Assembly (NCBI GenBank): GCA_963783365.1
Contig: CAWANI010000009.1
Location: forward strand, 418,406 to 482,405
DNA from: an uncultured delta proteobacterium
GTDB lineage: Bacteria > Desulfobacterota > Desulfuromonadia > Desulfuromonadales > CAWANI01
Direction of reading: 5' to 3'
Length of the DNA stretch: 64,000 nt
The notes beneath the pieces are model-generated. The model ran no database searches and had not been told where the DNA came from. It saw only the letters and a list, made by a program, of their open reading frames with translations. Made by a program: the position numbers and the translations under genes. Positions 15,067 to 63,583 of this stretch are shown here, piece after piece (position 1 is the first letter of the stretch; every line of letters begins with the position of its first letter).

Positions 15067-15102
15067 GAAAATGTTTGCCTGATTTCTTTGGTAAATATTT
15101 AA

Positions 15103-15515: not shown

Positions 15516-15516
15516 C

Positions 15517-16035: not shown

Positions 16036-16248
16036 ATGGTCAGAAGAGTCGTTCTTGGACTGATACATTTTTATCAGCGATTCCTTTCCCCCCTCAAGGC
16101 GCCTTCCTGCCGATTTTATCCTTCCTGTTCCTCCTATGCCTGCCAGGCCGTAGAAAAGTATGGTGTATTAAAAGGCGGCATTATGAGTATTGGACGGGTT
16201 CTTCGGTGTCACCCTTTTCATCCTGGAGGGTATGACCCGGTAAAATAA
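16036..16248 (+). CDS. yidD: Membrane protein insertion efficiency factor YidD
   Basis: [43 protein letters not shown]. Confidence 0.9.
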
Positions 16249-16288
16249 TCGGCGAGTCTCCCCTTCCCATGTTCCGGAGCCCAAAAGA

Positions 16289-17923: not shown

Positions 17924-17934
17924 ATTTTGTTGGG

Positions 17935-37272: not shown

Positions 37273-40200
37273 TTACCTCTGCCCCAGCAGGCAGCGAACT
37301 TTTTCCATTAGAGCATCCGGCGTGAAGGGTTTTTGCAAAAAGGCCCTAAAGCCGTCAGCGTGCAAACCCTTCTTGCCGTGAAATTGACCGTACCCCGACA
37401 TGTAGAGGATTTTGATCCCGGGCACCTGCTCTTCCACCTGTTTCGCCAATTCCGCACCGCTCATCGCCGGCATGACCAGGTCGGTCACCAGCAGGTCGAT
37501 CGCCCCCTTCCCTGTTTCCCTGAAGAGCATTTCTCCCCTTTTTTTCTCCAGCTTCTCCAGGGCCTCCCGAGCGGTCTGCGCACTGAGAACGGTAAAACCG
37601 CTCTCCCGCAGGGCTTGCTCTACCAGCCGCAGTACCGCGAGCTCATCCTCGACCAGCAGGATCGTACCTTGATCGCCGGGAGGAGGGGGTGTCCAATTTT
37701 TACCGGTATCCTCAGGTGGTTCGTCGGTGCGTGGGAGAAAAATTTGAAAACATGATCCCTTGCCGGGAGCGCTTTCGAGCAGGATGTAACCGGCACTCTG
37801 TTTGACGATACCGAAGACGGTGGAGAGGCCCAGGCCGGTTCCGCGGCCCTGTTCCTTGGTCGTGTAAAATGGCTCGAAGACCCGCGCCTGAATCTCTTCG
37901 GACATTCCCGTGCCGCTGTCGCAGACCGAAAGAACCACATAGCGGCCGGGAACCGCTCCGCGATGGCCTTGCACGAAGGCCTCATCGATGTCGGCTTCGC
38001 TGGTGGAAATAGTGATATCCCCCCCCTGCGCCATGGCGTCGCGGGCGTTGATCACCAGGTTGAGCAGAACCTGCTCCAATTGTCCCGGGTCCGCCTTGAC
38101 CGGACCAACGCCCTCGCCGGGAGAAAAACAGTAGGCGATGTTCTCTTGCAGAAAACGCTGCAGGATTTTGGAAAAAGAGTGGATCAATGCATTGAGATCC
38201 AACACCTTCGGTTCAAGGACCTGGCGTCGGCTGAACGCCAGAAGCTGGCGGGTCAAAGCAGAAGCCCGCTGGCCGGCCTGCAACACCAGTTCGGCGTCTC
38301 CTCGTTTGGCAACGTCGTCCTTCAATGCGCGGATCAAGTGGGTGCTGTAGCCGTTGATGACCGTTAGCAGGTTGTTGAAATCGTGAGCGATGCCGCCGGC
38401 CAACTGGCCGATGGCTTCGAATTTCTGCACGACGTGGAGTTGATCAGCGGTCTGCTGACGAGCCTGTTCGGCGCGCACGCTGCGGATGGCGAGGGCCGCG
38501 GTCTGGGCAAAGGATTCCATCTCCTTCCGGTCGTTTTCCGAAAAGACGCCGGCCTTGTTGGCCAGGCCGATGTATCCGACGACCTGTGCGCCGATTTTCA
38601 GGGGAACGCCCAGAAAGTTAACAATAGGCGGATGCCAGGGAGGAAGCTTGTTGTCCAAAAAGAAAGGAGTCCCCTCGTTGTTCCAGAGAACCGTCTCGCC
38701 CCGGGTGGCGGAGGCGTGCAGAAGTTTGCCCGGGGAACAGAGGGTGGCGGAGGGTTTCATCTCTATTTTGCTTTCGAGGTCTTTAAACAGGGTGGTTCCC
38801 TTCCACTCTCCGCGGTTCTCCGAGACCGCCAGCAGCTGTCCCCGGTCGGGGTTTTCCAGGTCGTAGAGCAGGCCAATGGCGGCGCCGGAAATCTCCAGAC
38901 AGCGGTCGAGCATGACCGTGGCCATATCGTGAATGTTGCCGGTGAGCAGAAAACGCAGAAAGGATTCGGTCGCCGCCTCGAGAAGAAGCTGCCGGCGCCG
39001 CTCGGCGGCCGCCGCCTCATGTTGTTCGGTAACATCGCGAAAACTTTTTACCCGGCCCACGATTTGATTGTCGATATATTGAGGTTTGGAATAGTGGGCC
39101 ACGATTCGGCCGTCTTTAAAATGATAGGTGCCCCAACCCGTTTCGGTGGGATTGTCGTCAAGAGCGGCAATCTGGGAGAGAAATTGCTCGGGAGTTTTTA
39201 CCTGATTTTGAGCGAAATTCCGTACCGTATCGATCGCCCCCGAGGCCAGAGTGGCCTCGGGAATGTTCCACATTTCCACAAATTTTCGATTGCAGGCGAC
39301 GATTCGGCCCTGTCGGTCGATCGCCAGAATGCCGTCTGCCGTCGACTCCAGGGTCGCCGCCAGAAGAGAGTGCAACTTTTTAAAATTCTCTTCGCTTTTT
39401 TTCAAATCGGTAATGTCGCGAATGCTTTCGATGACGGCGACGACCTCCCCCTTCTCGTTTTTTATCGGCGCCGCGTCGAAGACACAGTAATGTTTTTCGC
39501 CGTCCCGAAATGTAAGCCATGCCTCCCCTTGCAGTCCATCGGGGCAATGCGGCGAACGCCGATAGCTTTCATACAGCCCCGTCAGATCCCCGGACTTCTT
39601 CTCGAGAACAAGATCAGCCAAGACGGGGCGCTGGTGTTCGTAGAAAGCCCACCATTGATTTCGGGTTCCAACCATTTCGGCGGCCTGAATCCCGGTCAGC
39701 AATTCGCAGGCTCGATTCCAGGCCAGCACCCGATGATTGGTATCCAGCACCAGAGTCGGAATGGAGGCACGCTGTACCAGGCTCTCGGAAAAACGCCGCT
39801 GATCCTCCAAGGCGGATTTTTTCTGGGCAATGTCGCTCAGCATCCGATTAAAGGACTTGGCAAGGGTGGCGATCTCGTCATCGGCGCGGATATCGATCAA
39901 GGGGGGGGCATCTTCCTCCCCGGTGATTTGTTCGACATGCCGGGTGAAAAGAAGCAGCGGGGCGGTCAGGTATCTCATGAAAAACCAGACCAGGACAATC
40001 GAGAAGACGAGAGTAACCGCCAGGGCGAAGGCAAAAAAACGCTCCGCCCGATAAACGGGCGCATAGGCTTCGTCCAGGGGAAAATCGGCACCCAGGATCC
40101 ATCCGGTATTCTGCAGGTGCTTAAAGGAAGAGAGGACGGGCTGGCCCGTCGAAGTGACCCTTTCGCCGGTTCCCTCAAACCCCCTGAGGGCCCGATCGAT

Positions 40201-40922
40201 CAAGGGGTGGGCTTCGAGGGCAGCCGCAGGGGTGACAATTTTGTTTTGGATCGGGACCAATGAGGGTGGAGCGGCTCTGATCAAATAGGTAGAGATATCC
40301 CTGTTTTCCCCAAACGGATGTCGGCCAGGTTTTCGAAAAAACTGCTTTTTAGCAGGTCGACGGAACCGCCGAGAACAGCGCGGATTTGCCCTGTGGGGTC
40401 CTTGATGGGGGCGGCGAACGTTATCAGGGGGTGATGAGGCTTATCGCTCGAAAAGTATACTTTGGACAGGCAGGGTTTCCCGGTGACGACGATACGGGCG
40501 AAAAAGTCGTGTTTTGACCAATTTCGATCGGCCACGAGCGGTCCGTGGGGGGATGCAGCCAATAGCCGGCCCGAAGGAGAGAAAACAGAAATTCCGTTGT
40601 TGAAGAATTGCTTGATTCCCACGCCCCGCATTTGATCAAGAAAGTCCTGGGTTTTTTCGGCGGATTTCAGTACGCCGGGGGAGATGGTCTGGGCCGTTCC
40701 GGAGATAAATGCCCGGCCCGTGTCGATCATGGAATCCACCTCGGTGGCGATTTCCGAAACCAGAACAAATTGTTGGGTGGAAATTTCGGCTTTAAGGCTT
40801 TTTTCAAAATAGGAAAAGCACAAAATGCTGAACAGCCCCAGAAGAAACAGAACCAATAAGGCAACCACCAGGGTTATCTTGGTTTTTAAACTCCAAAACC
40901 GCAAAAATTCCCCCTCTCCCAT
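37273..40922 (-). CDS. Hybrid sensor histidine kinase (TM-Cache-TM-HAMP-PAS-PAS-GAF-HisKA-HATPase-REC), split into two ORFs by frameshift(s) as sequenced
   Basis: ORF 40281..40922 gives a TM helix plus the first half of a Cache-like domain, ending ...IRLGKTG. ORF 37273..40284 continues with the second half (GFEGTGERV...FKHLQNTGWILGADFP), a TM helix, HAMP, PAS, H-box GIAHDFNNLL and a C-terminal receiver. A third frame reads TGYLYLFDQSR across the junction. Confidence 0.85.
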
Positions 40923-41472: not shown

Positions 41473-43315
41473 GTGGATGAGATGCTTCCTTCAGAGTTGA
41501 CTTGTGTTTCTACGTCAGCGGATGATGGGCAATTCAAGGCTATGGCCGAATCGGCTCCCGTCATGATCTGGCTCTCGGGAACCGACCAGGACGGCACTTT
41601 TGTCAACCGGGCGTGGCGTCACTTCACCGGATGGAGTAAAGAGGAGGAGCCGGGAAGAGATTGGATCAAGCTGATTCATCCCGACGATCGAGAAAAAACC
41701 CTGGAAATTTCAGGAAAAGCATTCGAAGCCGTGGCGGCGTTCAGGCTGGAATACCGCCTTCGGCGATACGATGGCGTTTACCGCTGGGTTCTGGATAAAG
41801 GCGTGCCGCGGGTTACCGACGACGGCGTGTTCATCGGATACGTTGGTTTTTGTATCGATATCAGTGCGCATCGAGATCTTGAAAAGCAATTACAGGAGCT
41901 GAATGCTACCCTCGAGCAACGGGTCTCTGAGCGGACCGAATCCCTACAGGAAATCAACGCGACGTTAAAAAAAGAGATCGCCGAACGGAAAGGAATTGAA
42001 AAGGAGTTGCATCAAGGCCGGGCAGCCCTGGCGGCGCAGCATGCGGAACTGAACCGGGTGTTTCACCAGGTGGAGATGGCCAAGCGGGAGTGGGAAGCCA
42101 CCATGGACTGCATCGAGGACACCGTGGTCATTCTCGTCGACGACCTGGGGGCCATTCGTCGTTGCAACAGCGCCTTAGCCGAGTTGACGGGCTGCTCCTA
42201 TGGCGAATTGAAGGGGAAAAATGTCAAGAAGGTTCTGCGGGGATGTGGCTTCCACTGTGGGGAATGTTTCGCGAATGGCGAAGAAATCCGGCAGGAACCC
42301 AGCGGCCGGTGGTTTGTCTTGAGCAATTATCCCCTGAAGAATTCGGGGGCAGGGGGAGGCAAGGTTCTTGTTGCTCACGATTACACGAAGTTGAAAGGTC
42401 TCACCCAGCAGCTCGAGGAATCGAACCGGGAACTGGAGGCCAAGGGGCGGGAACTCGAAAGGGCCAACGCCGAGCTGAAAGAGACCCAGGTGAAAGTCCT
42501 GCAGCAGGAAAAGATGGCGACCATCGGTCAGCTGGCCGCCGGGGTGGCTCATGAGATCAACAATCCGATCGGATTTATCTCCAGCAATCTCGGGACCCTG
42601 GAGAAGTATATCGGAAAATTCACCGCTTTCATCGACGCCCAAACAACGCTCCTGCGGGAAGTGGGAGCGCAGGATGCCTTGGATGCCCTCGCCAAAAAGC
42701 GCCGGGAGCTCAAGCTCGACTTCGTCACCGAGGATATCGGCGACCTGATCCGGGAATCCCTGGGGGGGGCCGAGCGGGTGAAGAAAATCGTCCAGGACCT
42801 TAAGACTTTCTCCCGGGTGGACCAAGCCGAGTCCAAGTTCGTGGACCTGGTCGAGTGCATCGAAAGTACGGTGAATATCGTCTGGAACGAACTGAAATAC
42901 AAAGCGACACTGGAGAGGGAGTACGGGGATCTGCCGCTGATCAAGTGCTATCCCCAACAGTTGAATCAGGTCATCTTGAATTTACTGGTCAATGCCGGGC
43001 ACGCCATTGAAAAAGACGGCCGGATTACGCTGAAAGCTTGGCAGGAGGGCTTGGCCGTTTATTTTTCGGTTGCCGACAACGGTTGCGGCATCCCCCGGGA
43101 GAATCTGACCAAACTCTTCGAGCCCTTTTTCACCACCAAGGAGGTCGGTCAGGGGACCGGTCTCGGGTTGAGCATCGCCTACGATATCGTGAAAAAACAT
43201 CATGGCGAAATATCCGTCCGAAAGCGAAGTCGGTAAAGGAACGGCCTTTACCATCTCTCTGCCTCTGATAGACGTAGAGGGGGACGAGGTTGCTTCGGCG
43301 GGAACGATGGATTGA
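41473..43315 (+). CDS. PAS/PAS sensor histidine kinase; last ~30 codons off-frame as sequenced
   Basis: ORF 41473..43236. PAS (HPDDRE...YRLRRYDGVYRW), H-box [27 protein letters not shown]. Removing one C at 43218/43219 restores the standard end ISVESEVGKGTAFTISLP... with TGA at 43313-43315. Confidence 0.88.
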
Positions 43316-43360: not shown

Positions 43361-44233
43361 GTGTACGTTGAAGAAAACCTGCCGCCACCCATTACGATGA
43401 AGGAAGCGATGACTGAAGGGATTAAGATTCTTTGCGTCGATGACGAAAGAAACGTTCTGAGGGCTCTCGAGCGGCTGTTTCTGGACGATGACTACGAGAT
43501 ATTCTCTGCGCTCTCCGGCGAGGAAGGACTGGAGCGGCTCGCCGAAGAAGGGGATATCCAGATCGTCATCTCCGACTATCGGATGCCCGGCCTGAATGGC
43601 GTCGATTTTTTGCAGAAAGTCTGTACACAGTGGCCCCATACTGTCCGAATCGTGCTTTCGGGATATGCCGATACCGCGGCGGTGGTAGGAGCGATCAATG
43701 AAGGGCAGATCTACAAATTTATCCCCAAACCCTGGAACGACGATGAGCTGAGAGTCACAATCCAGAACGCCGTTGAACGTTATTTTCTGACCAGGCAGAA
43801 CGCCCTGCTGCTGGAAGAACTCCAGGCGGCCAATGAAAATCTGCGGTCGGTCAACGAAGGGCTGGAAGCTGAAGTCTTCGCCCGCACAGCCAAGCTGACC
43901 TGTCAAAATCAGGCGCTCACCGTGTCGCAGAATATCCTGGATGCCTTGCCTGTCGGCGTGGTCGGGGTCGATTCGACCGGTATGGTCGTCTGCTGTAATC
44001 AGGCGGGACGGGCCTTCTTTCAAGGCCGGGCGGATTTTATCCTGGGCAATTCATGTCGAAACCTCTTTCCCGAAGCGCTCCTGAATTTTCTGGAAGAGAT
44101 GGCGCAGGCGCAGGGACGAGGTCTGCGTTCGGAGGTTTCCTGGACGGCCAAGAGAGTGCGGGTTCAGGGGGCCCGGCTGGACCAGGACGATCAGGCCGGC
44201 ATCGTTCTGGTTCTGGATGTGGCGGGGAACTGA
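43361..44233 (+). CDS. Response regulator, REC + coiled coil + PAS-like output
   Basis: ILCVDDERN...IVISDYRMPGLNG...SGYAD...KFIPKPWNDDEL. The true start may be ATG 43397 or 43409 (RBS AAGGAAG). Confidence 0.85.
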   Translation: MYVEENLPPPITMKEAMTEGIKILCVDDERNVLRALERLFLDDDYEIFSALSGEEGLERLAEEGDIQIVISDYRMPGLNGVDFLQKVCTQWPHTVRIVLSGYADTAAVVGAINEGQIYKFIPKPWNDDELRVTIQNAVERYFLTRQNALLLEELQAANENLRSVNEGLEAEVFARTAKLTCQNQALTVSQNILDALPVGVVGVDSTGMVVCCNQAGRAFFQGRADFILGNSCRNLFPEALLNFLEEMAQAQGRGLRSEVSWTAKRVRVQGARLDQDDQAGIVLVLDVAGN

Positions 44234-44452
44234 TGGTGAACGGCGGGCACCGCGATTGCCGATCCCAATTGCGGCGGAATCTATCGCTTCATCGGCAAGT
44301 CCCGGGTTGAAGGCGAAGGTAATGGTGATGCTGAAGCCTGTCTGACCCGCATCCGCACCGTCCGGGATCTCGACCTCTGGGAGGATGAGACTGCGTCGCT
44401 CTTCCTGGACCATATCATCGCTCTTCATGCGAAAAAGGATATTCCCACGTGA
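44233..44452 (+). CDS. Small hypothetical protein (~72 aa), frameshifted near its start as sequenced
   Basis: ATG 44233 overlaps the upstream stop (TGATG). After dropping one G of GGG 44245-44247 the frame is open to TGA 44450-44452, which overlaps the next GTG start (GTGA). The aligned antisense frame is open, as is usual opposite real coding DNA. No homology recognised. Confidence 0.45.
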
Positions 44453-45793
44453 GTCAGGATTCTCTTCTAATAACGAGTGAGGCCGACGCGGAGGCAGCTA
44501 TCGGGGTTTTGTTTGTCGATGACGAGAAGAACATTCTCTCATCGATAAAACGACTCATGATAGACGAATCGTTTTCGATTTTCACCGCCGAGTCGGGCGA
44601 AGAAGGTCTGGAAATCCTGGCCTCGGAAGCCGACATCGGGCTGATCGTTTCCGATCAGCGGATGCCGGGGATGAGCGGCACGGTCTTTCTGGAAAAAGCC
44701 CGGGCCGCAGCACCGGACGCACTTCGCATCCTGCTCACCGGCTACGCCGACATCACGGCGACGATCGATGCCATCAACAAGGGGGGCGCCTATCGCTATA
44801 TCACCAAACCCTGGGTGGATGGCGAACTGCTGCAGACGGTCCGGGAGGGGGTGAAGACCTATCGGCTCACCCGCGAAAACCGGCGTCTGACGGCGATCGT
44901 TCAGAAGCAGAATGAGGAGCTCAAGGACTGGAATGCACAGCTTAAGTCCCGGGTCTTGCAGCAGACGGCTCGGATCAGGACGCAAAACGAGGATCTGTTC
45001 GCCCAAAACAGCCGCCTTCAAAGAAGCTATCGCGACACCATTGCGGCCATGTCCGGCCTGATCGAACTGCGCTCCAAGCAGCTGCGGAATCACAGTCGCA
45101 ACGTGGCGGCGCTCTCCGTTGCCGTGGCCGCCGCCATGGGGCTGGCCCGGGAAGAGGTCGAGCGGATTCAAGTCGCCTCCCTGCTTCACGACATCGGTAA
45201 AATTGGTACTCCCGATAGCCTTTCTCGCAAAAATGTTTCTGAACTGAGCCAGGAGGAGCGCGAAGAATACCTGCAGCATGCGGTGCGCGGCCAGATGGCC
45301 CTCGATGCCGTCGAGGAGCTGCGCCCGGCAGGAATTCTGATTCGGCACCACCACGAGCATTTCGACGGCAGCGGGTATCCCGACGGCTGCCGCGGGGAGG
45401 AGATCCCCCTGGGGGCGCGGATTATCGCCATCGCCGACTTTGTCGATCGGACCATCCAGACGATCTACGACGTCCAGGCCGTCTGTAAAACTCTGGGGGA
45501 ATTGGAGCAGAGCCTGGGGACCCTGTTCGATCCCCAACTTTTTCCGCACTTCGACACCTCTGTCAGGACGATCTACCGGCGGGATGCCACCGATGCCGAC
45601 CTCGTGGAGAAAATCGTAACACCGGATCAGCTTCGAGGAGGGGATGATCCTTGCGTCGGACCTTTTCAGCGGAACGGGACTTCTGCTCCTGGGCCGGGGG
45701 GAACGGCTGACCGGAAAGCGGATCGAGGCGATTCTGCGGCATCAGAAGCTCGATCCGGTCACGGGGTCGATTTCCGTGTTGGTAAAGGACTGA
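44449..45793 (+). CDS. Response regulator with HD-GYP c-di-GMP phosphodiesterase domain; C-terminal ~50 codons off-frame as sequenced
   Basis: REC (FVDDEKN, LIVSDQRMPGMSG, KPW). HD-GYP (HDIGKIG, HHEHFDGSGYPDG). Removing one G near 45636-45643 gives ...DQLREGMILASDLFSGTGLLLLGRGERLTGKRIEAILRHQKL...VLVKD with TGA at 45791-45793. Confidence 0.88.
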
Positions 45794-45796: not shown

Positions 45797-46483
45797 GTGA
45801 TTGAATTCGACGAACAGGAACAGAAGATGGTTCTGAAGCTGGTCTATTACGGGCCGGCCCTGTCGGGGAAAACCACCAACCTGCTGCAGCTCCATGAACA
45901 GTTGCTGCAGGAGGGCCGGGGGGAGCTCATGGTCCTTGACACCAAGAACGACCGGACCATCTACTTCGACCTGCTTCCTTTCTTTCTGCGGGCCCCCAGC
46001 GGGCTGCGGATCAAGGTTAAGGTCTTTACCGTTCCCGGCCAGGTAAGGCACGACGCCACCCGCAAGGCGGTCCTTCAGCGGGCCGACGGGGTGGCCTTTA
46101 TCGCCGATTCTCAGCTTTCGGAGGCGGGAACCAATTTCAACAGCTTCGAAAACCTGGAGCAGAACCTCGCCTTCGTCGGGCTGGCCATCGATCGAATTCC
46201 TTTGGTTGTGCAGTTCAACAAGCGGGATCTGGACGCCATTGTTTCCGAAGAAGAGATTCGGCGGGTTTGGGGCCCCACCGGCATCCCGGTGTTGATGAGC
46301 ACCGCCCTGCAGGGCTGGGGCGTGGCCGAGACCTTCGCCCGGCTCGCCGCCATGACTTACGATCGCATCGACGCCCGCCATGGTCTGGAGAAAAACCACG
46401 GCCTGGACCGGGAGACGTTCCTGACTCAGCTTATCCGGCCCAGGGCGGGCGGGCCTCTGGAGGTTCCGGGGGCGAGGCCTTAG
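45797..46483 (+). CDS. MglA-family Ras-like small GTPase
   Basis: GTG start 3 nt after the corrected HD-GYP stop. KLVYYGPALSGKTTNL (P-loop), DRTIYFDLLP (switch I Arg-Thr), FTVPGQV (switch II), QFNKRDL (G4). Reads co-linear with MglA as I remember it. Confidence 0.85.
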   Translation: MIEFDEQEQKMVLKLVYYGPALSGKTTNLLQLHEQLLQEGRGELMVLDTKNDRTIYFDLLPFFLRAPSGLRIKVKVFTVPGQVRHDATRKAVLQRADGVAFIADSQLSEAGTNFNSFENLEQNLAFVGLAIDRIPLVVQFNKRDLDAIVSEEEIRRVWGPTGIPVLMSTALQGWGVAETFARLAAMTYDRIDARHGLEKNHGLDRETFLTQLIRPRAGGPLEVPGARP

Positions 46484-46573
46484 GTGGAAGGCTCCCAATC
46501 ATGAATAATTGATCGCCGATTGGCGGACACACGTTGCTCGTCACTGATCACTGCCTTAGCATCCGAGGAAAAG

Positions 46574-47869
46574 ATGACCCCGGGAGAAACTATCGAATTT
46601 GTCGTCGGCGAGGAAAAGCGCCTCCGCGATGTTCTGCGCGAAGCCGATGTTGCGCCGCTGCTGACCAGTGCGGTCAAGTCCGGCATCGCTCGGATCGCGA
46701 TTCACGACGAGAACGAAGCGGTGCTCTTCGCCTTCGATGGCAGCCGGCCGCATCATCCAGTAGATTCCTGGGACGAATCCCGACCCCTCCTTCTCGAAGG
46801 CGAACCGGTCGGCGCCATCCGTTTTCGGCGCGGCGCGGTCAACGCCGTCGGTTGCCGAATTCTGGCCGGCCTGGTGGCCGACGCCGTCAACAGCATGCTC
46901 GCCGCCAATCTGAAACGGATGCTGACCACCGAGATCCATACCAAGGTCGTCAACCAGTCCTACGAAGAGTTGCTGGAGAGTAACCGACGGCTGGCCGAGT
47001 CGGAAAAGAGATACCGAGACCTGGCGGAAAGCCTCGAAATCCGAGTGCGGGAGCGGACCGAGGAACTGCAGCGGGCTACCACACAGATGATTCAGCAGGA
47101 AAAGATGGCCTCCATCGGCCAGCTGGCCGCCGGGGTGGCCCATGAGATCAACAATCCCCTTGGCTTCATTCTCAGCAATCTGAACACCCTGGAGAAATAC
47201 GTCGGTCGGTTTGCCGCCATGCTGGCCTTCTACCGGGAAGCAGGCGGAGCGGCCGAGGCGGGTGAGAGAAAATGGCGCGAGCTGAAGCTCGATTATCTGC
47301 TCCAGGACGTCCCCGACCTGATCGCCCAGAGCATCACCGGGGCCGAGCGGGTCAAAAAGATCGTGGCCGATCTGCGGGGCTTTTCCCACGTCGACGACCT
47401 GGGCGAGGGGCCGATGGACCTCAATCAGGAGATCGAGAGGACCCTCGGCGTCCTCGTTCACGAGATTCCGCCCGGAGCGCGGATCGAGCGGAAATTCGGC
47501 CCGCTGCCGGCCATGGTCGGCCACGGCGGCCTGCTTTGCCAGGTTTTTTTGAATATCGTCCGCAACGCCTTTCAGGCCCGACCCGAAGGCCTGGAGCTGG
47601 AGATCGCCACCGAGTGCCGCGGGGATGCCGTACAGTTGCTTTTCGCTGACAACGGCCCCGGAGTTCAGGAGGAAATCAAGAACCGGATCTTCGAGCCCTT
47701 CTTCACCACCCGCCAGGTCGGCCGGGGAATGGGAATGGGGCTGACGGTGGTTCACGATGTCGTCACCGGCTTCGGCGGGACGGTGCAGGTGGAGGACAGG
47801 CCGGGGGGCGGGGCCGTCTTTGTCATTCAATTGCCGATGGGAGGGATATCGGATGGCCAAGTACGCTGA
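46574..47869 (+). CDS. Histidine kinase with an unassigned ~130-aa N-terminal region
   Basis: H-box [28 protein letters not shown] 46574 sits behind GAGGAAAAG; the ORF track starts at TTG 46520. No TM helix seen. Confidence 0.85.
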   Translation: MTPGETIEFVVGEEKRLRDVLREADVAPLLTSAVKSGIARIAIHDENEAVLFAFDGSRPHHPVDSWDESRPLLLEGEPVGAIRFRRGAVNAVGCRILAGLVADAVNSMLAANLKRMLTTEIHTKVVNQSYEELLESNRRLAESEKRYRDLAESLEIRVRERTEELQRATTQMIQQEKMASIGQLAAGVAHEINNPLGFILSNLNTLEKYVGRFAAMLAFYREAGGAAEAGERKWRELKLDYLLQDVPDLIAQSITGAERVKKIVADLRGFSHVDDLGEGPMDLNQEIERTLGVLVHEIPPGARIERKFGPLPAMVGHGGLLCQVFLNIVRNAFQARPEGLELEIATECRGDAVQLLFADNGPGVQEEIKNRIFEPFFTTRQVGRGMGMGLTVVHDVVTGFGGTVQVEDRPGGGAVFVIQLPMGGISDGQVR

Positions 47870-50282
47870 ATTGTTTCGCTCTCTGGCGGGCGAGCAAGCG
47901 GCGCCGGCCCGGGAAACGCCGCCGGAGGCGACCGATGAGCAGACCGACTTCACACTGCTTTTCGTCGACGATGAGCCGGGAGTGCTGCGGTCGCTGAGGC
48001 GGATCTTTCTCGATGAAAATTACCGCATTCTGACCGCCCCCGCCGGCGCCGACGCCCTCGAACTGATGGCGACGCAGAAGGTTCACCTCGTTATCTCCGA
48101 CCATCGCATGCCGGGGATGACTGGTGCCCAGCTCCTCAAGGAGATCAAGGAACGCTGGCCCGCGACGATCCGCATCATGCTCACCGGCTACGCCGATGTT
48201 CAGTCGATCATGGGGGCGGTCAACGAGGGGGCGGTCTACAAGTTCATCACCAAGCCCTGGAACGACGAGGACCTGCGCCTGACGGTGAGCCTGGCGCTGC
48301 AGCAATACGTGCTGTTGCAGGAGAACAAGAAACTCAAGGAGGTCACCCGCAAGCAGCAGGAGAAGATCAAGAACTTTTCCACCCTGATCGGGGACAACAA
48401 CGGCGTGCTGGGGAACCTTTTGGCCAATGCCGGCGTGGTGCAGAAGGCTGACTTCCATCGGGCGCTGCGGGAGCGGCAGGGAGGGGAGTTCGTCACCGAA
48501 ACCCTCGGTCGGCTCGGGCTCGTCAGCGAATCGAAGATCGTCAAGGTGCTCCAGGACAAGCTGCGCCTCGAATACGTCGACCTCAAGGAAGTACGCCTGT
48601 CCGGCGAGACGGTTCGCCTGCTGCCCCGCGAGCTGTGCGAGAAAAACCGGATGATTCCGATCAAGGTCGAAGGCCGCAACCTGACCCTCGCCATGGCCGA
48701 CCCCTCTGATATCTACAAATGCGACAACCTGGCCATGATGACGGGGTTCAAGATTCTGCCGGTGATTGCCCGAAGCACTGACATCCTGGGTCAGCTGCAG
48801 TCGGTCCATGGCTTCGAGGCCGGTGGCGGTGACATGGATTTCGACGAGATTCCCGACCTTGAGCCGATCGACGAGGTCGATATCGTCATCGAAGAGGATG
48901 AGAACGAGATCAACGTCCAGGAGTTGATCAACTCTTCGGAAGTTCCACCCATCATCCGGATCGTCAACTCCATCATCTCCGAGGCGATCCGCTACCGGGC
49001 AAGCGACATTCACATCGAACCGAAGACGAAGTTCACCGTGGTGCGCTTGCGCATCGACGGCATCCTGCACGACAAGATCCGCGTTCCCGCGGAACTGCAC
49101 CCCGCCGTCATCTCCCGGATCAAGATCCTGGCCAAGCTCGATATTTCCGAACGGCGCAAGCCCCAGGACGGCCGTATTACCGTGAAATCCGGCACCCGGA
49201 TGGTCGATCTGCGGGTCTCGACCATGCCCTCCATCAACGGGGAGAAGGTGGTTCTGCGCATTCTCGACAAGAGCGCGGCGATCAAGAAGCTCGACGAGCT
49301 GGGGCTGCTCAAAGAGGATCTGAAGAGCCTCCGCAGCGTGATCAAGAAGCCTCAGGGAATGATCATCGCCACCGGTCCCACGGGGAGCGGCAAAACCACC
49401 ATGCTCTACTCGGTGCTTGGCGAGATGCTCGAGCGCTCAAAGAACTTCGAGACGATCGAGGACCCGGTGGAGTATTTCCTCGAGGAGGCCAACCAGGTCT
49501 ACGTCCGGGAGAAGATCGGCCTCACCTTCGCCTCCGTCCTGCGGGCAACCCTGCGCCAGGATCCCGATGCCATCCTGGTCGGGGAGATCCGCGACCGGGA
49601 TACCGCCGACGTGGCCTTCAAGGCGGCTCTCACCGGGCACATGGTGCTCACCACCCTGCACACCAACAGCTCGGTGGCCTCCATCACCCGCCTGATCGAC
49701 ATCGGCATCCAGCCCTATCTGATCGCCTCCGCCCTCGAAGGGGTTGTCGCTCAGCGGCTGGTGCGGCGGTGCTGTAAGTACTGCAAGGTGGAGGAAGTCC
49801 CCGATCCGGAGCTGATGCAGCTCCTGCGCGTTTCTCCGGATCTTGTCGGGCCGTCGGCCTTTCGCGGCGCCGGCTGCCCCCGCTGCAACAATACCGGCTA
49901 TCTCGGGCGCACCGGCATCTACGAGCTGTTCGTCATGAATGAGGATTTCCGCCACCTGATCTCCGAGAACTACCGGGAGTCGGAGCTGCTCGGGCTGGCC
50001 CGCGGCAACGGGATGAAAACCTTGATCGAAGACGGCCTGGCCAAGGTCCGTCAGGGAGAGACGACCCTCGCCGAGCTGCTGCGGGTGCTGGGCCCCCAGA
50101 TCCGGCACGAGCGGGTCTGCAAGAGCTGCCGCAGAACTATCGATGCCAAGTTCCTCTTTTGTCCCTACTGCGGAGCATTCAAGCAGAACGTCTGCGTCAA
50201 ATGCAAACTGCCGATGGAGGAGGACTGGAGCCTCTGCGCGTTCTGCGGGCATCCTCGGTCCTCCATTGAATGTTGTTCCTGA
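47853..50282 (+). CDS. Receiver-fused PilB/GspE-type (T2SSE) ATPase with a C-terminal double zinc ribbon
   Basis: ATG 47853 behind GGGAGGG. REC (FVDDEPG, VISDHRMPGMTG, KPW). T2SSE_N-like segment. Walker A GPTGSGKTT, Walker B DAILVGEIRD, His box GHMVLTTLHTN, CKYC...CPRC. Tail contains CKSC, CPYC, CVKC and CAFC. Confidence 0.9.
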   Translation: MAKYAELFRSLAGEQAAPARETPPEATDEQTDFTLLFVDDEPGVLRSLRRIFLDENYRILTAPAGADALELMATQKVHLVISDHRMPGMTGAQLLKEIKERWPATIRIMLTGYADVQSIMGAVNEGAVYKFITKPWNDEDLRLTVSLALQQYVLLQENKKLKEVTRKQQEKIKNFSTLIGDNNGVLGNLLANAGVVQKADFHRALRERQGGEFVTETLGRLGLVSESKIVKVLQDKLRLEYVDLKEVRLSGETVRLLPRELCEKNRMIPIKVEGRNLTLAMADPSDIYKCDNLAMMTGFKILPVIARSTDILGQLQSVHGFEAGGGDMDFDEIPDLEPIDEVDIVIEEDENEINVQELINSSEVPPIIRIVNSIISEAIRYRASDIHIEPKTKFTVVRLRIDGILHDKIRVPAELHPAVISRIKILAKLDISERRKPQDGRITVKSGTRMVDLRVSTMPSINGEKVVLRILDKSAAIKKLDELGLLKEDLKSLRSVIKKPQGMIIATGPTGSGKTTMLYSVLGEMLERSKNFETIEDPVEYFLEEANQVYVREKIGLTFASVLRATLRQDPDAILVGEIRDRDTADVAFKAALTGHMVLTTLHTNSSVASITRLIDIGIQPYLIASALEGVVAQRLVRRCCKYCKVEEVPDPELMQLLRVSPDLVGPSAFRGAGCPRCNNTGYLGRTGIYELFVMNEDFRHLISENYRESELLGLARGNGMKTLIEDGLAKVRQGETTLAELLRVLGPQIRHERVCKSCRRTIDAKFLFCPYCGAFKQNVCVKCKLPMEEDWSLCAFCGHPRSSIECCS

Positions 50283-50345: not shown

Positions 50346-50900
50346 ATGAAAAATGCCATTTTGATCGTGGACGATGAGGAGCAGGTTATCCATGCCCTAC
50401 GGCGGTCGCTGGCCGACGAAGACCTTGAGATTTTCTCAGCCGGCAGCGGGGAGGAGGCCCTGGAGCTGATCGCCTCGCGGTCCTTCAAGGCCATCGTGTG
50501 CGACGAGCGGATGCCGCGGATGTCCGGGGCCGAGCTCCTCTCCCTGCTTCGGTCCCGGCACCCGGAAACAGTGCGCATCCTGTTGACCGGCCACGCCACC
50601 CCCGAGGCCGCCATGAAGGCGGTGAACCAGGGGGAAATCTACCGGTTTTTCGCCAAGCCGTGGAACGACTTCGACCTGAAACTCGCCATCCGCTCGGCGA
50701 TCGAAAAATACGACCTCGAGATGAAAAACCGCAAACTGCTGGCCCTGGTCCGCCACCAGGCCCGAACCCTGGAGCATCTGGAAAGCGCCTACCCCGGGCT
50801 CACCCGGACCGGACAGGGCGCGGATGGCAGCTTCTTTATTCCGGAGCTCTCCGACGAGGAGGTGACCCTGATCCTGCGGGAATGCCAGGTGGCTCGGTGA
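50346..50900 (+). CDS. Stand-alone response regulator receiver protein with a short C-terminal extension
   Basis: IVDDEEQ, IVCDERMPRMSG, LTGHAT, FAKPWNDFDL. Confidence 0.88.
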   Translation: MKNAILIVDDEEQVIHALRRSLADEDLEIFSAGSGEEALELIASRSFKAIVCDERMPRMSGAELLSLLRSRHPETVRILLTGHATPEAAMKAVNQGEIYRFFAKPWNDFDLKLAIRSAIEKYDLEMKNRKLLALVRHQARTLEHLESAYPGLTRTGQGADGSFFIPELSDEEVTLILRECQVAR

Positions 50901-57698: not shown

Positions 57699-57890
57699 TT
57701 ATCCTTCCCTCACCCCGAGTTTGCGCAGAATCGTCATCATCGGACACCAATCGGTGAAAGCGCTCTGAAAAAGATTCAGACCGACAAAGGCGGTGAACAG
57801 ATACCAGTAGGGGGAGACGGCGTAGCCCAGCAGCAGGCTGAGCAGGATGAAAAAGCCGGCGATCAGGCGCAGGTAACGGTTAACGGTCAT
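57699..57890 (-). CDS. DUF2892 (YgaP-like) small membrane protein
   Basis: MTVNRYLRLIAGFFILLSLLLGY...FQSAFTDWCPMMTIL. ATG 57890 overlaps the RND stop (ATGA). Confidence 0.75.
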   Translation of the reverse strand: MTVNRYLRLIAGFFILLSLLLGYAVSPYWYLFTAFVGLNLFQSAFTDWCPMMTILRKLGVREG

Positions 57891-60800
57891 GGCTGAAATC
57901 TCCTTGCGTGTTTTTCGGCTTTTTTGCCGTAGATGAGCCAGTAGACGACGGGGATCACCACCAGGGTGAAGGCGGTCGAGGCGAAGACCCCGAAGATGAT
58001 CGACCAGGCGAGCCCCGAGAAGATCGGATCGAGGGTGATGACCCAGTTGCCGAGCAGAGCGGCGCCCGCCGTGAGGAGGATCGGCCGCAGGCGCACGGCG
58101 CCGCTTTCGATGATCGCCTCCTTGAGCGGAACGCCCCGGCGCAGGGCGTGGTGGATGAAGTCGATGAGGATGATCGAGTTGCGCACCACGATCCCGGCCA
58201 GGGCGATCATGCCGATCATCGCCGTGGCGGTGAAGAAGACGGGAGTGTTGTACCCTCCCACCTGGTGGTTCATGATCAGGTTGAGGAGCCAGAAGCCGGG
58301 CATGATGCCGATCATCGTCAGCGGGATCGCGCCCATAATGATCAGCGGCATGGCGTAGGAGCTGGTCTCGATCAGCAGCAGGATGTAGATCATGACCAGG
58401 GCTGCGCCGAAGGCGATGCCCAGGTCGCGAAAGACATCGAGCGTGATCTTCCACTCCCCCTCGCCGTTCCAGACCACGCTGGTGCCGGTGGGCAGGGAGT
58501 GCTTCTTGAACCACGAGGAGAGATTGAGAATGGCATTGACCGGGCTCTTGCCGGCCATATTGCCGAAGACGTAGACCACCCGCTGGAGATTCTTGTGGTA
58601 GATGGTCGGGGCGAGGGTTTCGTGTTCAAAGCGCCCCAGTTCCGAGAGACGCACAAGTTTGTTCCCGGCCCCGTGGACATCGAGGGCGCCCAGCTCGGAG
58701 GCCGAGGAGCGGCTGCGCAGAGGCAGGCGCTCCTCGATCCGAAGGGGATTGCGCTCCGAGGGGACGTGAACTGTGCCCACTGTCTGGCCGCCCAGGGCTA
58801 AGGCCAGGGTGCGGGCGATCTGCGCGTCGCTCACCCCGGAGAGAGCCGCCTTTTCCTTGTCGGGGACGAAGTGAAGCCGCCGCTGGGGGGCTTCGACGGT
58901 ATCGTCGACATCGACCACTTTGTCCTCCCGCTCCATGCGGGCCCGCACGATCTTGGCCGAGGCGATCTGCTGAGCGTAGCTGATCCCGGGGCGGGCGTAG
59001 ATCTCGGCGGTGAGGGTGGCGATGACCGGCGGGCCGGGGGGGACCTCGACGATTTTCAGATTGGCGCCGTGGGCCCGGGCGATGCGGGTCAGATCGTTGC
59101 GCAGCCGCAGGGTGATCTCGTGGCTCTGCTGGGCGCGCTCACCCTTGGGGGCGAGGTTGACGCGGATATCGGCCACGTTCGGCCCGTGGCGCATGTAGTA
59201 GTGGCGGACCATGCCGTTGAAGTCCATGGCGCTGGCGGTGCCGACGTAGGATTCGAAGTCGGTCACCTCGTTGACCGTGCCCAGGTAGTCCTCCAGGGCC
59301 CGCACCGCCGCGTCGGTCGTCTCCAGGGTGGTCCCCTCGGGCATGTCGACCACCAGCTGGAACTCGTTCTTGTTGTCGAAGGGGAGCATCTTCATCGGCA
59401 CCAGGTTGAACAGCGGCATGGCCATGGAGCCGAGCAGCAGCACCACCACCGCCCCGACCAGCAGCCAGGCCTTGCGCCGCGAATCGATGAAGGGCTCGAG
59501 GATGCGCCGGTAGACCTGGTAGATGCGGCTCTCCTCGAGGACGAACTCCTTCTCCTGCTTGCCGTACTCCCCCTTGAGGACGTGGTAGCTCATCCAGGGG
59601 GTGATGGTGAAGGCGACCAGCAGCGACATCAGCATGGTCAGCGGGACGTTGATCGCCATCGGCCGCATGTAGGGCCCCATCATGCCGGTGATGAAGAGCA
59701 TCGGCAAAAAGGAGAGGATGACCGCCAGGGTCGCCAGGATCACCGGCGGCCGCACCTCGTCGACGGCGGAGAGGACCGCCTCGCGCGGCGGCTCCTTCTT
59801 CATCTTGAAATGGCGGTAGATGTTCTCGACGTCGACGATGGGGTCGTCGACCAGCAGGCCCAGGGCCAGCACCAGGGCGAAGAGGGTGACCCGGTTGATG
59901 GTGTAGCCGAACCAGTAGTTGACCATCAGGGTCAGCGAATAGATGATCGGGATCGAGACCGAGACGATGAAGGCCTCGCGCCAGCCCAGGGCGAAGAGGA
60001 TCAGCGCGAGGACCGTCACCATGGCGATCAGCAGCTCCTCGATCAGCTCGTTGACCTTGTGGTTGGCGGTCTCGCCGTAGTCGCGGGTGACCCGCACCTG
60101 GATGTCGTCGGGGATGATCTGTCCCCTGCATGGCGTGCACGGCGTCGATCACCTCGTTGGCCACCACCACGGCGTTGGTCCCCTTCTTCTTGGCGACGGC
60201 GATGTTGACCGCCTGGTACTCGGTGCCCGTCGCGGCCGCCGCTTGGCGTCGCCGGCGGGGCCGAAGCGCAGCCGGGTGTAGGTCTGCGGCTCGGCCGGGC
60301 CGTCGCTGACCTTGGCGACGTCGCGCAGGTAGACCGGCGCGCCGTGGTCGACCCCGACCACCAGCCGCGCGACCTCGCGCGCCGAGCTGAAGAAGGTGCC
60401 GCCGCGCACCAGGATCTCCTGGTCGTCCCGCTCGAAAGCTGCCGGCCGGCAGCTCCAGGTTGGCGCCGGCAAGAGCCCGGCGCACGTCGAGCAGAGCGAT
60501 GCCCCGGGCGGCCATCGCCTCGGGATCGATCGCCACCCGCACCTGGCGGGGGCGGCCGCCGATGACCGTGGTCACCGAGGTGTTCTTCACCGACTGCAGC
60601 CGGTCGACCACCTCCTCGGCGACCCGGCGCAGCTCGTAGTCCGAATCGCTGCTTCGAGTAGAGGGTGAGGTTGACGATCGGCACGTCGTCGACGGCCACC
60701 GGCTTGATCACCCAGCCGGTCACCCCCGGCGGCACCAGGTCGGTGTGGGTGCTGATCTTGTTGTGCAGCTTGACCAGCGAGGCGATGCGGTCCTCGCCGA

Positions 60801-61115
60801 CGTAGAAGCGGGCGGTGACCACCGCCATGCCGGGGCGGGACATGGAGTAGACGTACTCCACCCCGTCGACCTGCCAGAGGAGCTTCTCCAGGGGGGTGGC
60901 GACGAGCTTCTCCACCTCCTTGGCGCTCGCCCCCGGCATGTGGACGTAGACGTCGGCCAGCGGCACCACGATCTGCGGCTCCTCCTCCCGGGGGGTCAGC
61001 ATCAGCGCCGCGGCGCCGGCCACCAGGGCGAGCAGGATGAGGATGACCGACAGGTTGCCGTCGAGGAACTTGTCGACGATGCGGGTCGGCAGGGAGTGTT
61101 TCCGACGCTCGCCAT
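57887..61115 (-). pseudogene. RND efflux permease (CzcA/CusA/AcrB superfamily); 5' third disrupted by at least six frameshifts as sequenced
   Basis: ORF 57887..60097 is an intact 736-aa C-terminal part. The N-terminal part is spread over three frames: IVDKFLDGNLSVILILLAL..., VDRLQSVKNTSVTTVIGGRPRQVRV..., FERDDQEILVRGGTFF..., YQAVNIAVAKKKGTNAV... ATG at 61115. Confidence 0.85.
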
Positions 61116-61118
61116 CGA

Positions 61119-62232
61119 TCAGCCCTCCACCCGGGCGCCGTTGCGGGCCTGCTCGGTGCCGGTGGCGACGATGGTCTCGCCGGGGCGCAGCCCGGAGAGG
61201 ATCTCCACCTGCTCGCCGAGGGTGCGGCCGGTGCGTACCAGCCGAAAGTGCAGAATCCCTTTTTCGACCGTATAAATCGCCGGTTAGCTGCCCGCGGGTG
61301 ACCAAGGCGCTACGCGGAATGAGCAGCGTCTTCCGGCTGCCGCCGGCGAGGCTCGCCCGGGCGAACATGCCGGCGGAGAGCCCTTGAGCATCCTGGCAGG
61401 ACAATTTTGACTTCGAAGGAGCGGCTGCTGGGATCTGCCGCGGGAAGGATGTCTTTGACCTGGCCGGCAAAGGAGCGGCCGACAGCAGGCACCGTCGACG
61501 CTGAAGGAATCCCGCCGATTCGCACCTTCCCGAAAAGCGATCTCGGGCAGATTCACCCGCACCTGCCAGCTCCCCGCCGCGGTCGAGGACCAGCAGGGGC
61601 GTGCCGGGCATCACGGTCGTGCCCGCCTCCACCTTTTTGCGCACGATCCGCCCGGCAAAGGGGGCGACGACGCGGGTGTAGGAGAGGGCCGTGCGGGCCG
61701 CACCTCGTGCCGCGACGGCGCCGTCGCGGGCCGCTCGGGCGGCGGCGAACTGGTGCCGGGCCGTTTCCAGTTCGGTGCTGACGCGGTCCATCTCCTGCGG
61801 GGTGACCGCTTCGTCGGTGAACAGCCTGCGGTAGCGGGCTTCGGTCTTTCGAGCCAGCTCGAGCCGGGCCTGGGCTGCGGCCATTTCCCTTCTGCTTGCT
61901 GGAGCGCCGCTTTGGCTTCGGCCAGCCGATCGCCGGCAACGTTGTCGTCGAATGGTGAGCAGCGGCGCGCCCCGTCGGACACGGTCCCCCTCGCGGACCA
62001 GGATCCGGTCGACCTGGCCGTCGATGCGAGCGGCCAGGACCCCCCGGTCGGGGCTTTCGACCGTACCGACGAAGGTCTCGGTCCCGGTCACTGAGCCGGT
62101 GGCCACGGTGGCCAGGGTCACGCCCTTGATCACCGGAGGCTTCCCTCGGTGCGTCCCGGTTCGATGTTGCCTCCGCAGGCGGCCAGGATGAGCAAGGAGC
62201 AGCAGGCTGCAGCAGATGGCGGATTTCTTCAC
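61119..62232 (-). pseudogene. RND membrane-fusion (periplasmic adaptor) protein; at least eight frameshifts as sequenced
   Basis: GTG 62232 overlaps the OMP stop (GTGA). The lipobox LLILAACGG sits in a second frame. Pieces KPPVIKGVTLATV..., DDNVAGDRLAEAKAALQQAE, EMAAAQARLELARK..., VRIGGIPSASTVPAVGRSFAGQVKDI... and IYTVEKGILHFRLVRTG...ARVEG* lie in alternating frames. Confidence 0.8.
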
Positions 62233-63583
62233 GGCTTCACCTCGTCGGGCAGAAAAGTTTTCAGGAACGTCCCATTCTGGAAGCGGATGTTGCCGAGGGC
62301 CATGCAGCAGGCCGGCCTCGGCCTTCACGGCGTCGAGGCGGGCCTGGTCCAGGGCGCTCTGGGTGCCGAGCAGGTCGGAGAGATTGGCCAGTCCGGCCTG
62401 GTAGCGCTCCAGGGTCAGGCGGTGTCCCTCCTCGGCCTCCTTTACCGCCTCTTGGGCGGTGGCGAGGTTGAGGCGGGCTTCTTCGGCCCGCCGCTTGGCT
62501 TCCTCGACCTGCAGGTTCGCTTCGCGGGCGGCGTCGCAGACGCTGGGCATCGACGGCCCGCTTGAGGGCCTCGGCGCGGGCTGTTTCCTTCGGCCGCGCC
62601 GACAGCCGTCGAAGAGGTCCCAGGTGAGCCCGACCCCCACCGTCCAGCTGCTGCCGTCGGCGCCGAAGGGGGTGGAGGAGTCGTGCAGGGCGTAGGAGGC
62701 CTGCAGGCCGACCCTGGGAAGGTAGGCGGCCTTGCTCTGGCGGTAGGCGAGGTCGGCGGCCTGGGACTGCAGGGCGAGGGCCTGCAGGTCGGCCCGCTCG
62801 GGCTTGCCGGCGGATCGATTTGCTCGCCGAAGAGGGCGGGGGTCAGGGGGACGGCGATGTCGAGGTCGTCCGCCGGCCGGCCCAGGGCGAGGGCAAAGCG
62901 CCGGCGGGCGATGGCCAGGTCGTTTTCGACCGTCAGCAGGCGGCGTTCGGTCTCGGCGAGAAAGACCCTGGCGCGCAGCTCGTCGGCCTTGAGGCCGATG
63001 CCGGCCTGGCGGCGCTGGCTCGGCGACCCGCAGCATCTCCAGGGCGTCCTTGTGCGAGGCCTGCGCCCAGCCGAGGGCGGCGTGGGCCCGCTGCAGGGCG
63101 AGGTAGGCGGCATAGGCGCCAAAGGCGATCTGCTCTTCGCTCCAGCGGGCCGTGGCCGCGGCCGCCTCGGCTCCCTTCTGCGCCCGGTGGTAGCCGTAGC
63201 TGATGTCGGGGTTGAACAGGGGCTGCTCCAGGGTTACCTTGGTTTCGAAATCCCTGGTGGTGCCGGGATGATTGTAGGGGGCGGCGCTCGGGAAAAGAGT
63301 TGAGATCCTCCTGGTTGAGCGTCATGAACATGCTGTTGCCCGGCTCGTTGGTGATGGCGAAGTTTTCCGCCGCCGTCACCTTGGGCAGATAGTAGCTCTT
63401 GGCCTCCCCGGCGGCGTGGCGGGCGGCCAGGGCCTGCTGCCGCGCCGCCATCGGCGGCCGGCCGTTGGCTCACCGCCTCGCGCAGGGCCTGCTTCAACCC
63501 GACCGTTTTGGTGCGCGGCCATGGCGGCCGGCACCGAAAAGCAGGGAAATAACGATGAGTAAAATCAAACCTTTTTTGCTCAT
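62229..63583 (-). pseudogene. TolC-family outer-membrane efflux protein; at least eight frameshifts as sequenced
   Basis: ATG 63583 with signal peptide MSKKGLILLIVISLLFGAG. Later pieces TVGLKQALREAVS, MAARQQALAARHAAGEAKSYYLPKV..., YNHPGTTRDFETKVTLEQPLF..., GIGLKADELRARVFLAETE..., KPERADLQALALQSQAADLAYR... and LNLATAQEAVKEAEEGHRLTLERYQAG... lie in three frames. Confidence 0.8.

Follow-up and report, generated by a model that had tools for sequence, protein, structure and literature searches.

In the family-wide survey of Wuichet and Sogaard-Andersen (2015), an mglB gene lies within four genes of 390 of the 449 MglA proteins, the remainder being classed as 'orphans'; Group 1 of the family is recognised there by an Arg next to the G2 Thr, a TVPGQ motif at G3 and [NT]KxD at G4. 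The survey already lists orphan Group-1 proteins of about 220 amino acids (Gmet_3475, Geob_3508, GM18_0303 and GM21_2366), in genomes that also have an orphan MglA paralogue of about 290 amino acids; Geobacter genomes with the shorter orphan, including that of Geobacter metallireducens, have a coupled mglBA pair (with a 195-aa MglA) besides. A conserved neighbourhood for Group 1 was not reported in that survey. In Myxococcus xanthus there is a precedent for what such proteins do, as MglA (with SgmX) and SofG (with BacP) act on PilB/PilT (PMC7519303). Here we analyse an orphan Group-1 MglA-type GTPase of 228 amino acids, encoded at 45797-46483 on the + strand of a 64,000-nucleotide (nt) stretch of DNA from an uncultured delta proteobacterium (assembly GCA_963783365.1, contig CAWANI010000009.1, positions 418,406 to 482,405; 'the window' below means this whole stretch), together with the histidine kinase HK2 and the PilB/GspE-like ATPase that are encoded after it.

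As judged from gene order in related genomes, the GTPase, HK2 and the receiver-fused ATPase are the co-inherited core of a conserved seven-gene signalling module, present in many anaerobes. This places a Ras-like switch beside a kinase with an N-terminal domain of its own, which had been suggested to be a fused MglB-like regulator.

Conservation of the module

In the window, seven genes stand in one block on the + strand: a PAS kinase, REC-PAS, REC-HD-GYP, the GTPase, HK2, a REC-MshEN-T2SSE ATPase and a lone REC. We compared this block with the loci of close GTPase homologues (64-77% identity) from 80 species-representative genomes of several phyla, among them Geobacter, Geomonas, Geotalea, Geothermobacter, Trichloromonas, Geoalkalibacter, Deferrimicrobium, Desulfomonilia, Desulfobulbia and many Nitrospirota/Thermodesulfovibrionia. 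HK2 follows the GTPase in all of the 75 loci with enough sequence, and a REC-MshEN-PilB-like ATPase is next in order in 66 of 67. Upstream of the GTPase are found REC-HD(-GYP) (52 of 65 loci), REC-PAS (50 of 65) and the PAS kinase (43 of 65); in 39 of 62 loci the ATPase is succeeded by a lone REC. A matching order is called on public contigs from G. metallireducens GS-15, one G. sulfurreducens strain, Geobacter, Geothermobacter and a Nitrospirota genome.

Spacing within the window is tight, with 3 nt between the stop of the HD-GYP gene and the start of the GTPase gene, and the start of the ATPase gene overlapping the end of HK2 by 17 nt; the GTPase, HK2 and ATPase genes are probably co-translated. 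Because the gene order is conserved, a link from GTPase to kinase is strongly supported. That part of the original prediction, which had been made from the sequence of this DNA alone, therefore stands, while the fused Roadblock GTPase-activating protein (GAP) that it suggested, as a speculation, for the basis of the link does not (see below). Our literature searches did not find a description of the GTPase-HK2-ATPase module.

The GTPase is a Group-1 member of the MglA family

The 228-aa product had been read as a GTPase with MglA hallmarks, and these are borne out in the open reading frame (ORF): the P-loop GPALSGKTT at residues 19-27 (45851-45877), DRTIYFD at 52-58 (45950-45970) with Arg53-Thr54 within it, TVPGQ at 78-82 (46028-46042) and NKRD at 141-144 (46217-46228). 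Queried against the PDB with phmmer, it matches the MglA structures of M. xanthus (5ymx, 9.5e-44) and Thermus thermophilus (3t12, 6.4e-42), the next-best match after the MglA structures being Sec4 at only 3.6e-3. M. xanthus MglA, to which it has 44% identity, has the same residue numbers, so that Arg53, Thr54, Thr78 and Gln82 correspond to the known catalytic positions. Since an Arg adjoins the G2 Thr and G3 reads TVPGQ, it belongs to Group 1 by the published criteria, and we assign it, by homology, to that group of the MglA family. The C-terminus, from about 46370, extends 33 aa beyond MglA, close to the ~35 aa first estimated; across the GTPase family this extension is 22-33 aa long and conserved, and it includes the motif YGLxxxHGLxRxxF.

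An alignment of 121 members of the GTPase family shows the DRT motif, with its Arg finger beside the G2 Thr, kept in at least 90% of them. The P-loop reads GPA[L/M]SGKTT, with Ala at position 21 (45857-45859 in the window), in all 121, whereas canonical MglA has GPGLCGKTT with Gly21. Gly21 of MglA is the equivalent of Ras Gly12; the G21V change cuts MglA turnover 7-fold, and substitutions at Ras G12 give GAP-insensitive Ras (PMC3000849). The invariant Ala21, in a family that retains Arg53 and Gln82, suggests that hydrolysis, or its dependence on a GAP, may be altered. Those residues of beta2 that touch MglB are mostly retained (Tyr/Phe56, Phe57 and Leu59).

MglB in the window and in related loci

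No MglB or Roadblock ORF was found in the 64-kb window: a verified MglB (by phmmer) and a profile of three MglB sequences (by hmmsearch), run against every ORF of 50 aa or more in the six frames, gave zero matches at E <= 10, and Pfam scans of the predicted genes of the window did not match Robl_LC7. The same searches, with an MglB sequence and the MglB profile, of 16-kb neighbourhoods found mglB to be absent from 79 of the 80 related loci. The earlier reading of the operon as lacking a Roadblock ORF is thus confirmed and extended to its relatives, and the GTPase, having no mglB coupled to it, is an orphan, a recognised category of MglA proteins.

The sole MglB among the 80 neighbourhoods belongs to a Nitrospiraceae locus (L054), where a canonical mglB (4e-42 to M. 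xanthus MglB) is paired with a gene for a 195-aa MglA, 5 kb upstream of the module (L054 2059-3155 and 8001-11027). Taken with the coupled mglBA of Geobacter genomes, this makes a trans-acting MglB available in relatives. A canonical mglB encoded elsewhere and pairing with this GTPase had been named at the outset as what would tell against a fused regulator; in relatives, a canonical mglB is indeed encoded elsewhere, as a possible partner of the GTPase.

The N-terminal domain of HK2

HK2 most likely starts at the ATG at 46574 (MTPGETIEF...) and not at the upstream TTG at 46520, because independent assemblies call the same 431-aa product. It is a soluble kinase, in which Pfam finds HisKA and HATPase_c and no HAMP domain. 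Its N-terminal sensor domain (residues 1-112, at 46574-46909 on the + strand, with a LEGEPVG hairpin at 46793-46813) is family-specific; the first ~110-130 aa have no Pfam match, in agreement with the original prediction, which had left them unassigned. The remainder of the kinase (46907-47869) opens with the linker NLKRMLTTEIHT (46907-46942, residues 112-123), followed by VVNQSYEELLE, and carries the H-box AHEINNP at 47138-47158. The linker and the residues after it are the best-conserved stretch of HK2, far above the sensor domain, of which the invariant residues are Gly and Glu.

An AlphaFold2 model of the HK2 N-terminus, built from an alignment of 51 orthologues, had a predicted local distance difference test score (pLDDT) of 86.5 for a 150-aa construct and of 90.1 for the 104-aa domain, the latter with a predicted template-modelling score (pTM) of 0.80. 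It shows two short helices, two strands, a variable 12-residue loop, two further strands and a long helix, which runs unbroken from the sensor domain into the kinase core. With a significance cut-off of E <= 0.001, a Foldseek search of the PDB with this model gave zero matches. Below that level, HbpS/DUF336 proteins were found at E 0.011-0.016, with query-normalised template-modelling (TM) scores of 0.58-0.60; Roadblock proteins (MglB, LAMTOR and the C-terminal domains of Rag) at E 0.03-0.16, TM 0.56-0.62 and Foldseek probabilities of 0.9-0.99, among them the MglB entries 3t12_B (E 0.048, TM 0.58) and 3t1r; and GAF and PAS domains at TM 0.4-0.59. The comparison of folds that had been advised for this region thus yields a TM of about 0.6 to MglB and LAMTOR, which is non-significant and no better than that to HbpS-like proteins.

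Sequence profiles carry no sign of Roadblock. Aligned by hhalign with three verified MglB proteins, the HK2 N-terminus gave a probability of 5.9%, and a profile made from the sensor alignment met only chance matches (E > 0.4) among PDB sequences. When the 51 orthologues were scanned one by one against Pfam (E <= 1), Robl_LC7 was matched in none, and the weak matches that did appear were to Diacid_rec (6 of 51), HbpS-like (6 of 51) and GAF_2 (3 of 51).

The canonical Roadblock topology is helix-strand-strand-helix-strand-strand-strand, alpha2 lying against one side of a sheet of five strands. It is via alpha2 helices that MglB binds MglA (PMC6785124). The HK2 model has four strands and a loop where alpha2 would be, and no Roadblock signal is seen in its sequence; the domain is therefore read as a cut-down profilin-like sensor and not as a recognisable Roadblock domain. 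Profilin-like is a fold class of SCOP. The suggestion that the HK2 N-terminus is a fused Roadblock-like GAP is not supported, in view of the absence of alpha2, the Robl_LC7 scans and the hhalign result.

The domain occurs almost exclusively in this kinase family: when 1.84 billion cluster representatives were searched exhaustively with its profile, no more than 61 clusters had it. The great majority of these are kinases of 400-470 aa that carry it N-terminally; otherwise there are short fragments and a few long repetitive proteins, which are probably spurious. (A word-index search with the kinase N-terminus alone had found two fragments, and is superseded by the searches with the full-length kinase and with the exhaustive profile.) Within the module, it is the sensor domain that evolves fastest (mean distance 0.67, vs 0.30 for the GTPase). 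With the ATPase core controlled for, GTPase distances had partial correlations (r) of 0.45 with the HK2 sensor and 0.54 with the linker, vs 0.26 with the REC and 0.25 with the MshEN domain of the ATPase; this is weak evidence, from sequence divergence, that the GTPase tracks the HK2 sensor and linker above the ATPase.

The HD-GYP phosphodiesterase and the ATPase

The gene directly upstream of the GTPase encodes a REC-HD-GYP phosphodiesterase with an RxxQ motif (44449-45793, + strand; Pfam REC and HD_5, NCBIfam). Its frame is broken in the window by one extra G in GAGGAGGGG at about 45636-45644; past this G, the conserved C-terminal 57 aa (MILASDLFSGTGLLLL...VLVKD) lie in another frame, and the ORF is falsely extended to 45804. 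An independent assembly, in which the kinase is identical, and two contigs of 95% identity have the gene intact, at 447 aa, and the extra G is likely to be a sequencing error or a strain polymorphism.

The motif itself is RTIQ, at residues 334-337 (45448-45459), where the G. metallireducens orthologue has RAIQ in the alignment. That orthologue, a protein encoded directly upstream of a 225-aa GTPase and 51% identical to ours, we infer from its length, strand and consecutive numbering to be Gmet_3476, an HD-GYP protein with RxxQ for RxxK whose specificity is cited as shifted towards 3',3'-cGAMP (cyclic GMP-AMP). A G. metallireducens HD-GYP candidate was cGAMP-selective in a biosensor screen, and the rule for cGAMP-selective HD-GYP proteins is replacement of the Lys of RxxK by Gln or Asn; the window protein, with its RxxQ, is by this rule predicted to be a cGAMP-selective phosphodiesterase. 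The published work on cGAMP HD-GYP proteins is silent on the neighbouring GTPase, kinase and ATPase: in a term search of 10.1101/600031, 'GTPase', 'operon' and 'neighbor' did not occur. Orthologues elsewhere have RxxQ, RxxN or RxxG, and many loci have a second, shorter REC-HD gene with canonical RPYR. NCBIfam scores the window protein as a NosR-family cyclic di-GMP (c-di-GMP) phosphodiesterase (437 bits vs a cut-off of 400).

The ATPase (809 aa; 47853-50282, + strand) consists of REC, MshEN and T2SSE (PilB/GspE-like; Pfam T2SSE at 1.2e-129, with Response_reg, MshEN and DZR) and ends in a double zinc ribbon. It falls below the NCBIfam equivalog cut-offs for PilB (556 vs 675.65 bits) and GspE (538.5 vs 630.25 bits), and we would place it, by these scores, in the T2SSE superfamily as neither a PilB nor a GspE equivalog. 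The Walker A motif GPTGSGKTT and both CxxC pairs are conserved, and the tetracysteine motif is intact; the receiver is very conserved and the zinc ribbon is conserved. The c-di-GMP motifs of MshEN are only loosely conserved, and so we make no claim of a ligand for this ATPase.

Other genes of the module and its surroundings

The usual first gene of the module encodes the PAS histidine kinase (587 aa; 41473-43236, + strand; Pfam PAS, HisKA and HATPase_c), whose H-box is almost identical to that of HK2. It is followed by the REC-PAS response regulator (43361-44233, + strand; Pfam Response_reg and PAS), of 290 aa by its ORF, although an internal ATG may be the true start. The last gene encodes the single-domain REC response regulator (184 aa; 50346-50900, + strand; Pfam Response_reg). 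Among the proteins of the window, no pilus, secretion, mglB or romR genes were found.

Between the REC-PAS and HD-GYP genes lies a 216-nt spacer (44234-44448), which had been taken for a 72-aa ORF (44233-44452) and a second place in which a Roadblock domain might be sought. That frame has 5 stop codons, and the + strand ORFs of the spacer are all of 42 aa or fewer. Only one longer ORF is found here: it reads on the minus strand (44051-44428, 125 aa), shares sequence with the 3' end of the REC-PAS gene and is unmatched in Pfam. The spacer was dropped as a feature: it matches no Rfam family, and its conservation among 95%-identical relatives (98-99%) is not above that of the flanking genes.

Further afield, the presence of dnaA with gyrB, gyrA, yidC, jag, mnmE, mnmG, rsmG and parB, and of a low-GC stretch around dnaA (43-49% at 12000-18000, vs about 59%), indicates that the window covers the region of the replication origin; ATP synthase genes are found here too. 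The dnaA ORF has 392 aa, its C-terminal DNA-binding domain is unmatched at E <= 1e-5, and it may be truncated or frameshifted. Right after parB is a bactofilin gene (24472-24864), some 21 kb upstream of the module and with no link to it shown. On the minus strand at 37273-40922, a dCache fragment (40281-40922, 213 aa) and a 1003-aa HAMP-PAS-GAF kinase-receiver ORF overlap by 4 nt, and together look like one sensor kinase gene with a frameshift within the dCache domain. Also on the minus strand, a 997-aa ORF (60043-63036) matches outer-membrane efflux, membrane-fusion and AcrB N-terminal families, with the rest of AcrB in the next ORF (57887-60097). An unusual fusion would account for this, as would an artefact of ORF picking or frameshifts.

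A proposed signalling unit with the GTPase as its input

With middling confidence, we propose that the module acts as one signalling unit, in which the state of the GTPase is an input to HK2 and HK2 phosphorylates the receivers of the module. The nucleotide state of the GTPase would be read by the family-specific alpha/beta domain at the N-terminus of HK2, and the continuous helix, which is highly conserved, could then carry the signal into the kinase core. HK2 and the upstream PAS kinase may between them phosphorylate four receivers, those of the ATPase, the HD-GYP protein, REC-PAS and the lone REC, such that the levels of cyclic dinucleotides and a motor of the type IV pilus or type II secretion kind would be switched together. 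Any GAP activity might come from elsewhere, for example from a canonical MglB of the genome, or might be unnecessary.

Several observations weigh against this proposal. The sensor domain evolves fast, which is unexpected because it would be a docking surface for a highly conserved partner; the hints of Diacid_rec, HbpS-like and GAF_2 point equally to a sensor of small ligands; and the partial correlations amount to a modest trend with no significance test. As to the genes, the machine that would partner the ATPase is not encoded nearby, and the GTPase and HK2 are directly adjacent except in L054, where an HD-GYP gene separates them.

In the main rival model, the GTPase might act more directly, in a SofG-like way, by binding the PilB-like ATPase or its landmark and so controlling its place or timing, with the HK2 domain being a GAF/HbpS-like sensor of small molecules or redox state; we regard this as possible, if somewhat unlikely. 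MglA-family paralogues position or stimulate PilB/PilT (PMC7519303), the ATPase is present in all but one of the loci scored for it, the strongest hints that Foldseek and Pfam give on the sensor are to HbpS-like, GAF and Diacid_rec, and rapid evolution of the kind that the HK2 sensor shows is frequent in ligand sensors. However, the sensor domain is found in almost no other architecture, which would be unusual for a general ligand sensor; the divergence of the GTPase correlates less with the regions of the ATPase than with the HK2 sensor and linker; and in all of the 75 loci scored for it the GTPase gene is followed by HK2, not the ATPase.

Regulation in trans is rather more doubtful as an explanation by itself: here the GTPase would be regulated by the canonical MglB of the genome (with RomR/RomX-type factors), and the operon would put a second MglA output under two-component control. 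The coupled mglB-mglA pair of Geobacter genomes with the ~220-aa orphan, the pair upstream of the module in the one Nitrospiraceae genome and the largely retained MglB-contacting residues of beta2 all agree with this, but Ala21 is invariant in the family, at a position where G21V slows MglA and changes in Ras abolish the response to GAPs (PMC3000849). Such regulation would be compatible either with our signalling unit or with direct, SofG-like action on the ATPase.

That the HK2 domain is a degenerate Roadblock/MglB module, serving as GAP, guanine-nucleotide exchange factor or effector for the GTPase in an analogue of the conservons, we consider very improbable, for although MglB, LAMTOR and Rag domains are among its best structural matches, its helix1-strand1-strand2 segment aligns with that of MglB and the module encodes no other Roadblock protein, none of those matches is significant, HbpS-like proteins score as well or better, profile comparison and Pfam scans recover no Roadblock signal, and a variable loop takes the place of the very helix that forms the MglA-binding face of MglB.

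Returning to the signalling unit that we favour, one could go further and suppose that the HK2 domain is a stripped-down relative of the Roadblock/profilin-like domains, which reads or sets the nucleotide state of a dedicated MglA paralogue. We think this improbable; if true, it would mean that a Ras-like switch is wired straight into a His-Asp phosphorelay driving a PilB-type motor and cGAMP turnover, and the Desulfuromonadota/Nitrospirota would have, in this module, their own counterpart to the actinobacterial conservon, assembled from other parts.

Significance

Most of what is known of the regulation and outputs of orphan MglA-type GTPases comes from Myxococcus and Bdellovibrio. The locus described here is a compact and widely conserved unit, in which the likely partners of such a GTPase (a kinase, an ATPase and a phosphodiesterase) are indicated by gene order, and it is present in the genetically tractable G. 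metallireducens. Three subjects that were separate fields of study meet in it: polarity GTPases of the Ras-like kind; the control of type IV pilus or type II secretion motors by two-component systems; and signalling by cGAMP and c-di-GMP, through which Geobacter controls its surface life and extracellular electron transfer. With Ala invariant at the Ras G12 position, the GTPase family also offers a natural experiment on GAP dependence.

Comparison with known systems

The MglA/MglB polarity module of M. xanthus and T. thermophilus contains a GTPase of the same family, with Arg53-Thr54, TVPGQ with its Gln82, and NKRD; our locus differs in having no mglB in the operon, Ala in place of Gly21, a C-terminal extension and a two-component operon around the GTPase. 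SofG of M. xanthus, which with the bactofilin BacP localises PilB and PilT, resembles our GTPase as a Group-1 MglA paralogue that is an orphan and has a link to a PilB-type ATPase. In length, SofG (MXAN_6703, 298 aa) is close to the separate ~290-aa orphan of Geobacter, and the window GTPase, at 228 aa, is shorter; sofG is also tabulated as an orphan with no coupled gene (Wuichet and Sogaard-Andersen, 2015), whereas here a kinase and an ATPase are found with the GTPase in a conserved operon.

The actinobacterial conservons (CvnA-D / Mfp) resemble our module in the genetic coupling of an MglA-family GTPase to a histidine kinase. They are four-gene units of the Roadblock protein CvnB, CvnC, a HAMP kinase that is a membrane protein and has an LPxR tail, and a Group-2 GTPase without the Arg finger, and have no response regulator. 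The module in the window, in contrast, is without Roadblock or CvnC, and has a soluble kinase with a private sensor, a Group-1 GTPase, four receivers, a PilB-type ATPase and an HD-GYP protein. Group 1 Rup GTPase systems (Wuichet and Sogaard-Andersen, 2015) are similar in that the GTPase lies beside a kinase or c-di-GMP enzyme, with an unassigned N-terminal domain proposed to act on it; but Rup GTPases lack the catalytic Gln and their partner domain has an invariant Gln, while our GTPase has both Arg and Gln and the invariants of the HK2 sensor are Gly and Glu.

Two of the partner proteins also have described relatives. The HD-GYP protein is akin to the HD-GYP cGAMP phosphodiesterases (also abbreviated GAPs) of the Hypr-GGDEF/cGAMP pathway, in its identity to the probable Gmet_3476 and its RxxQ selectivity motif, and departs from them in that NCBIfam names its family NosR-type c-di-GMP phosphodiesterase. 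The ATPase shares with MshE/PilB-type ATPases the MshEN and T2SSE core, in which both Walker A and the tetracysteine motif are preserved, and differs from them in its extra N-terminal receiver, its C-terminal double zinc ribbon and the lack of adjacent pilus or secretion genes.

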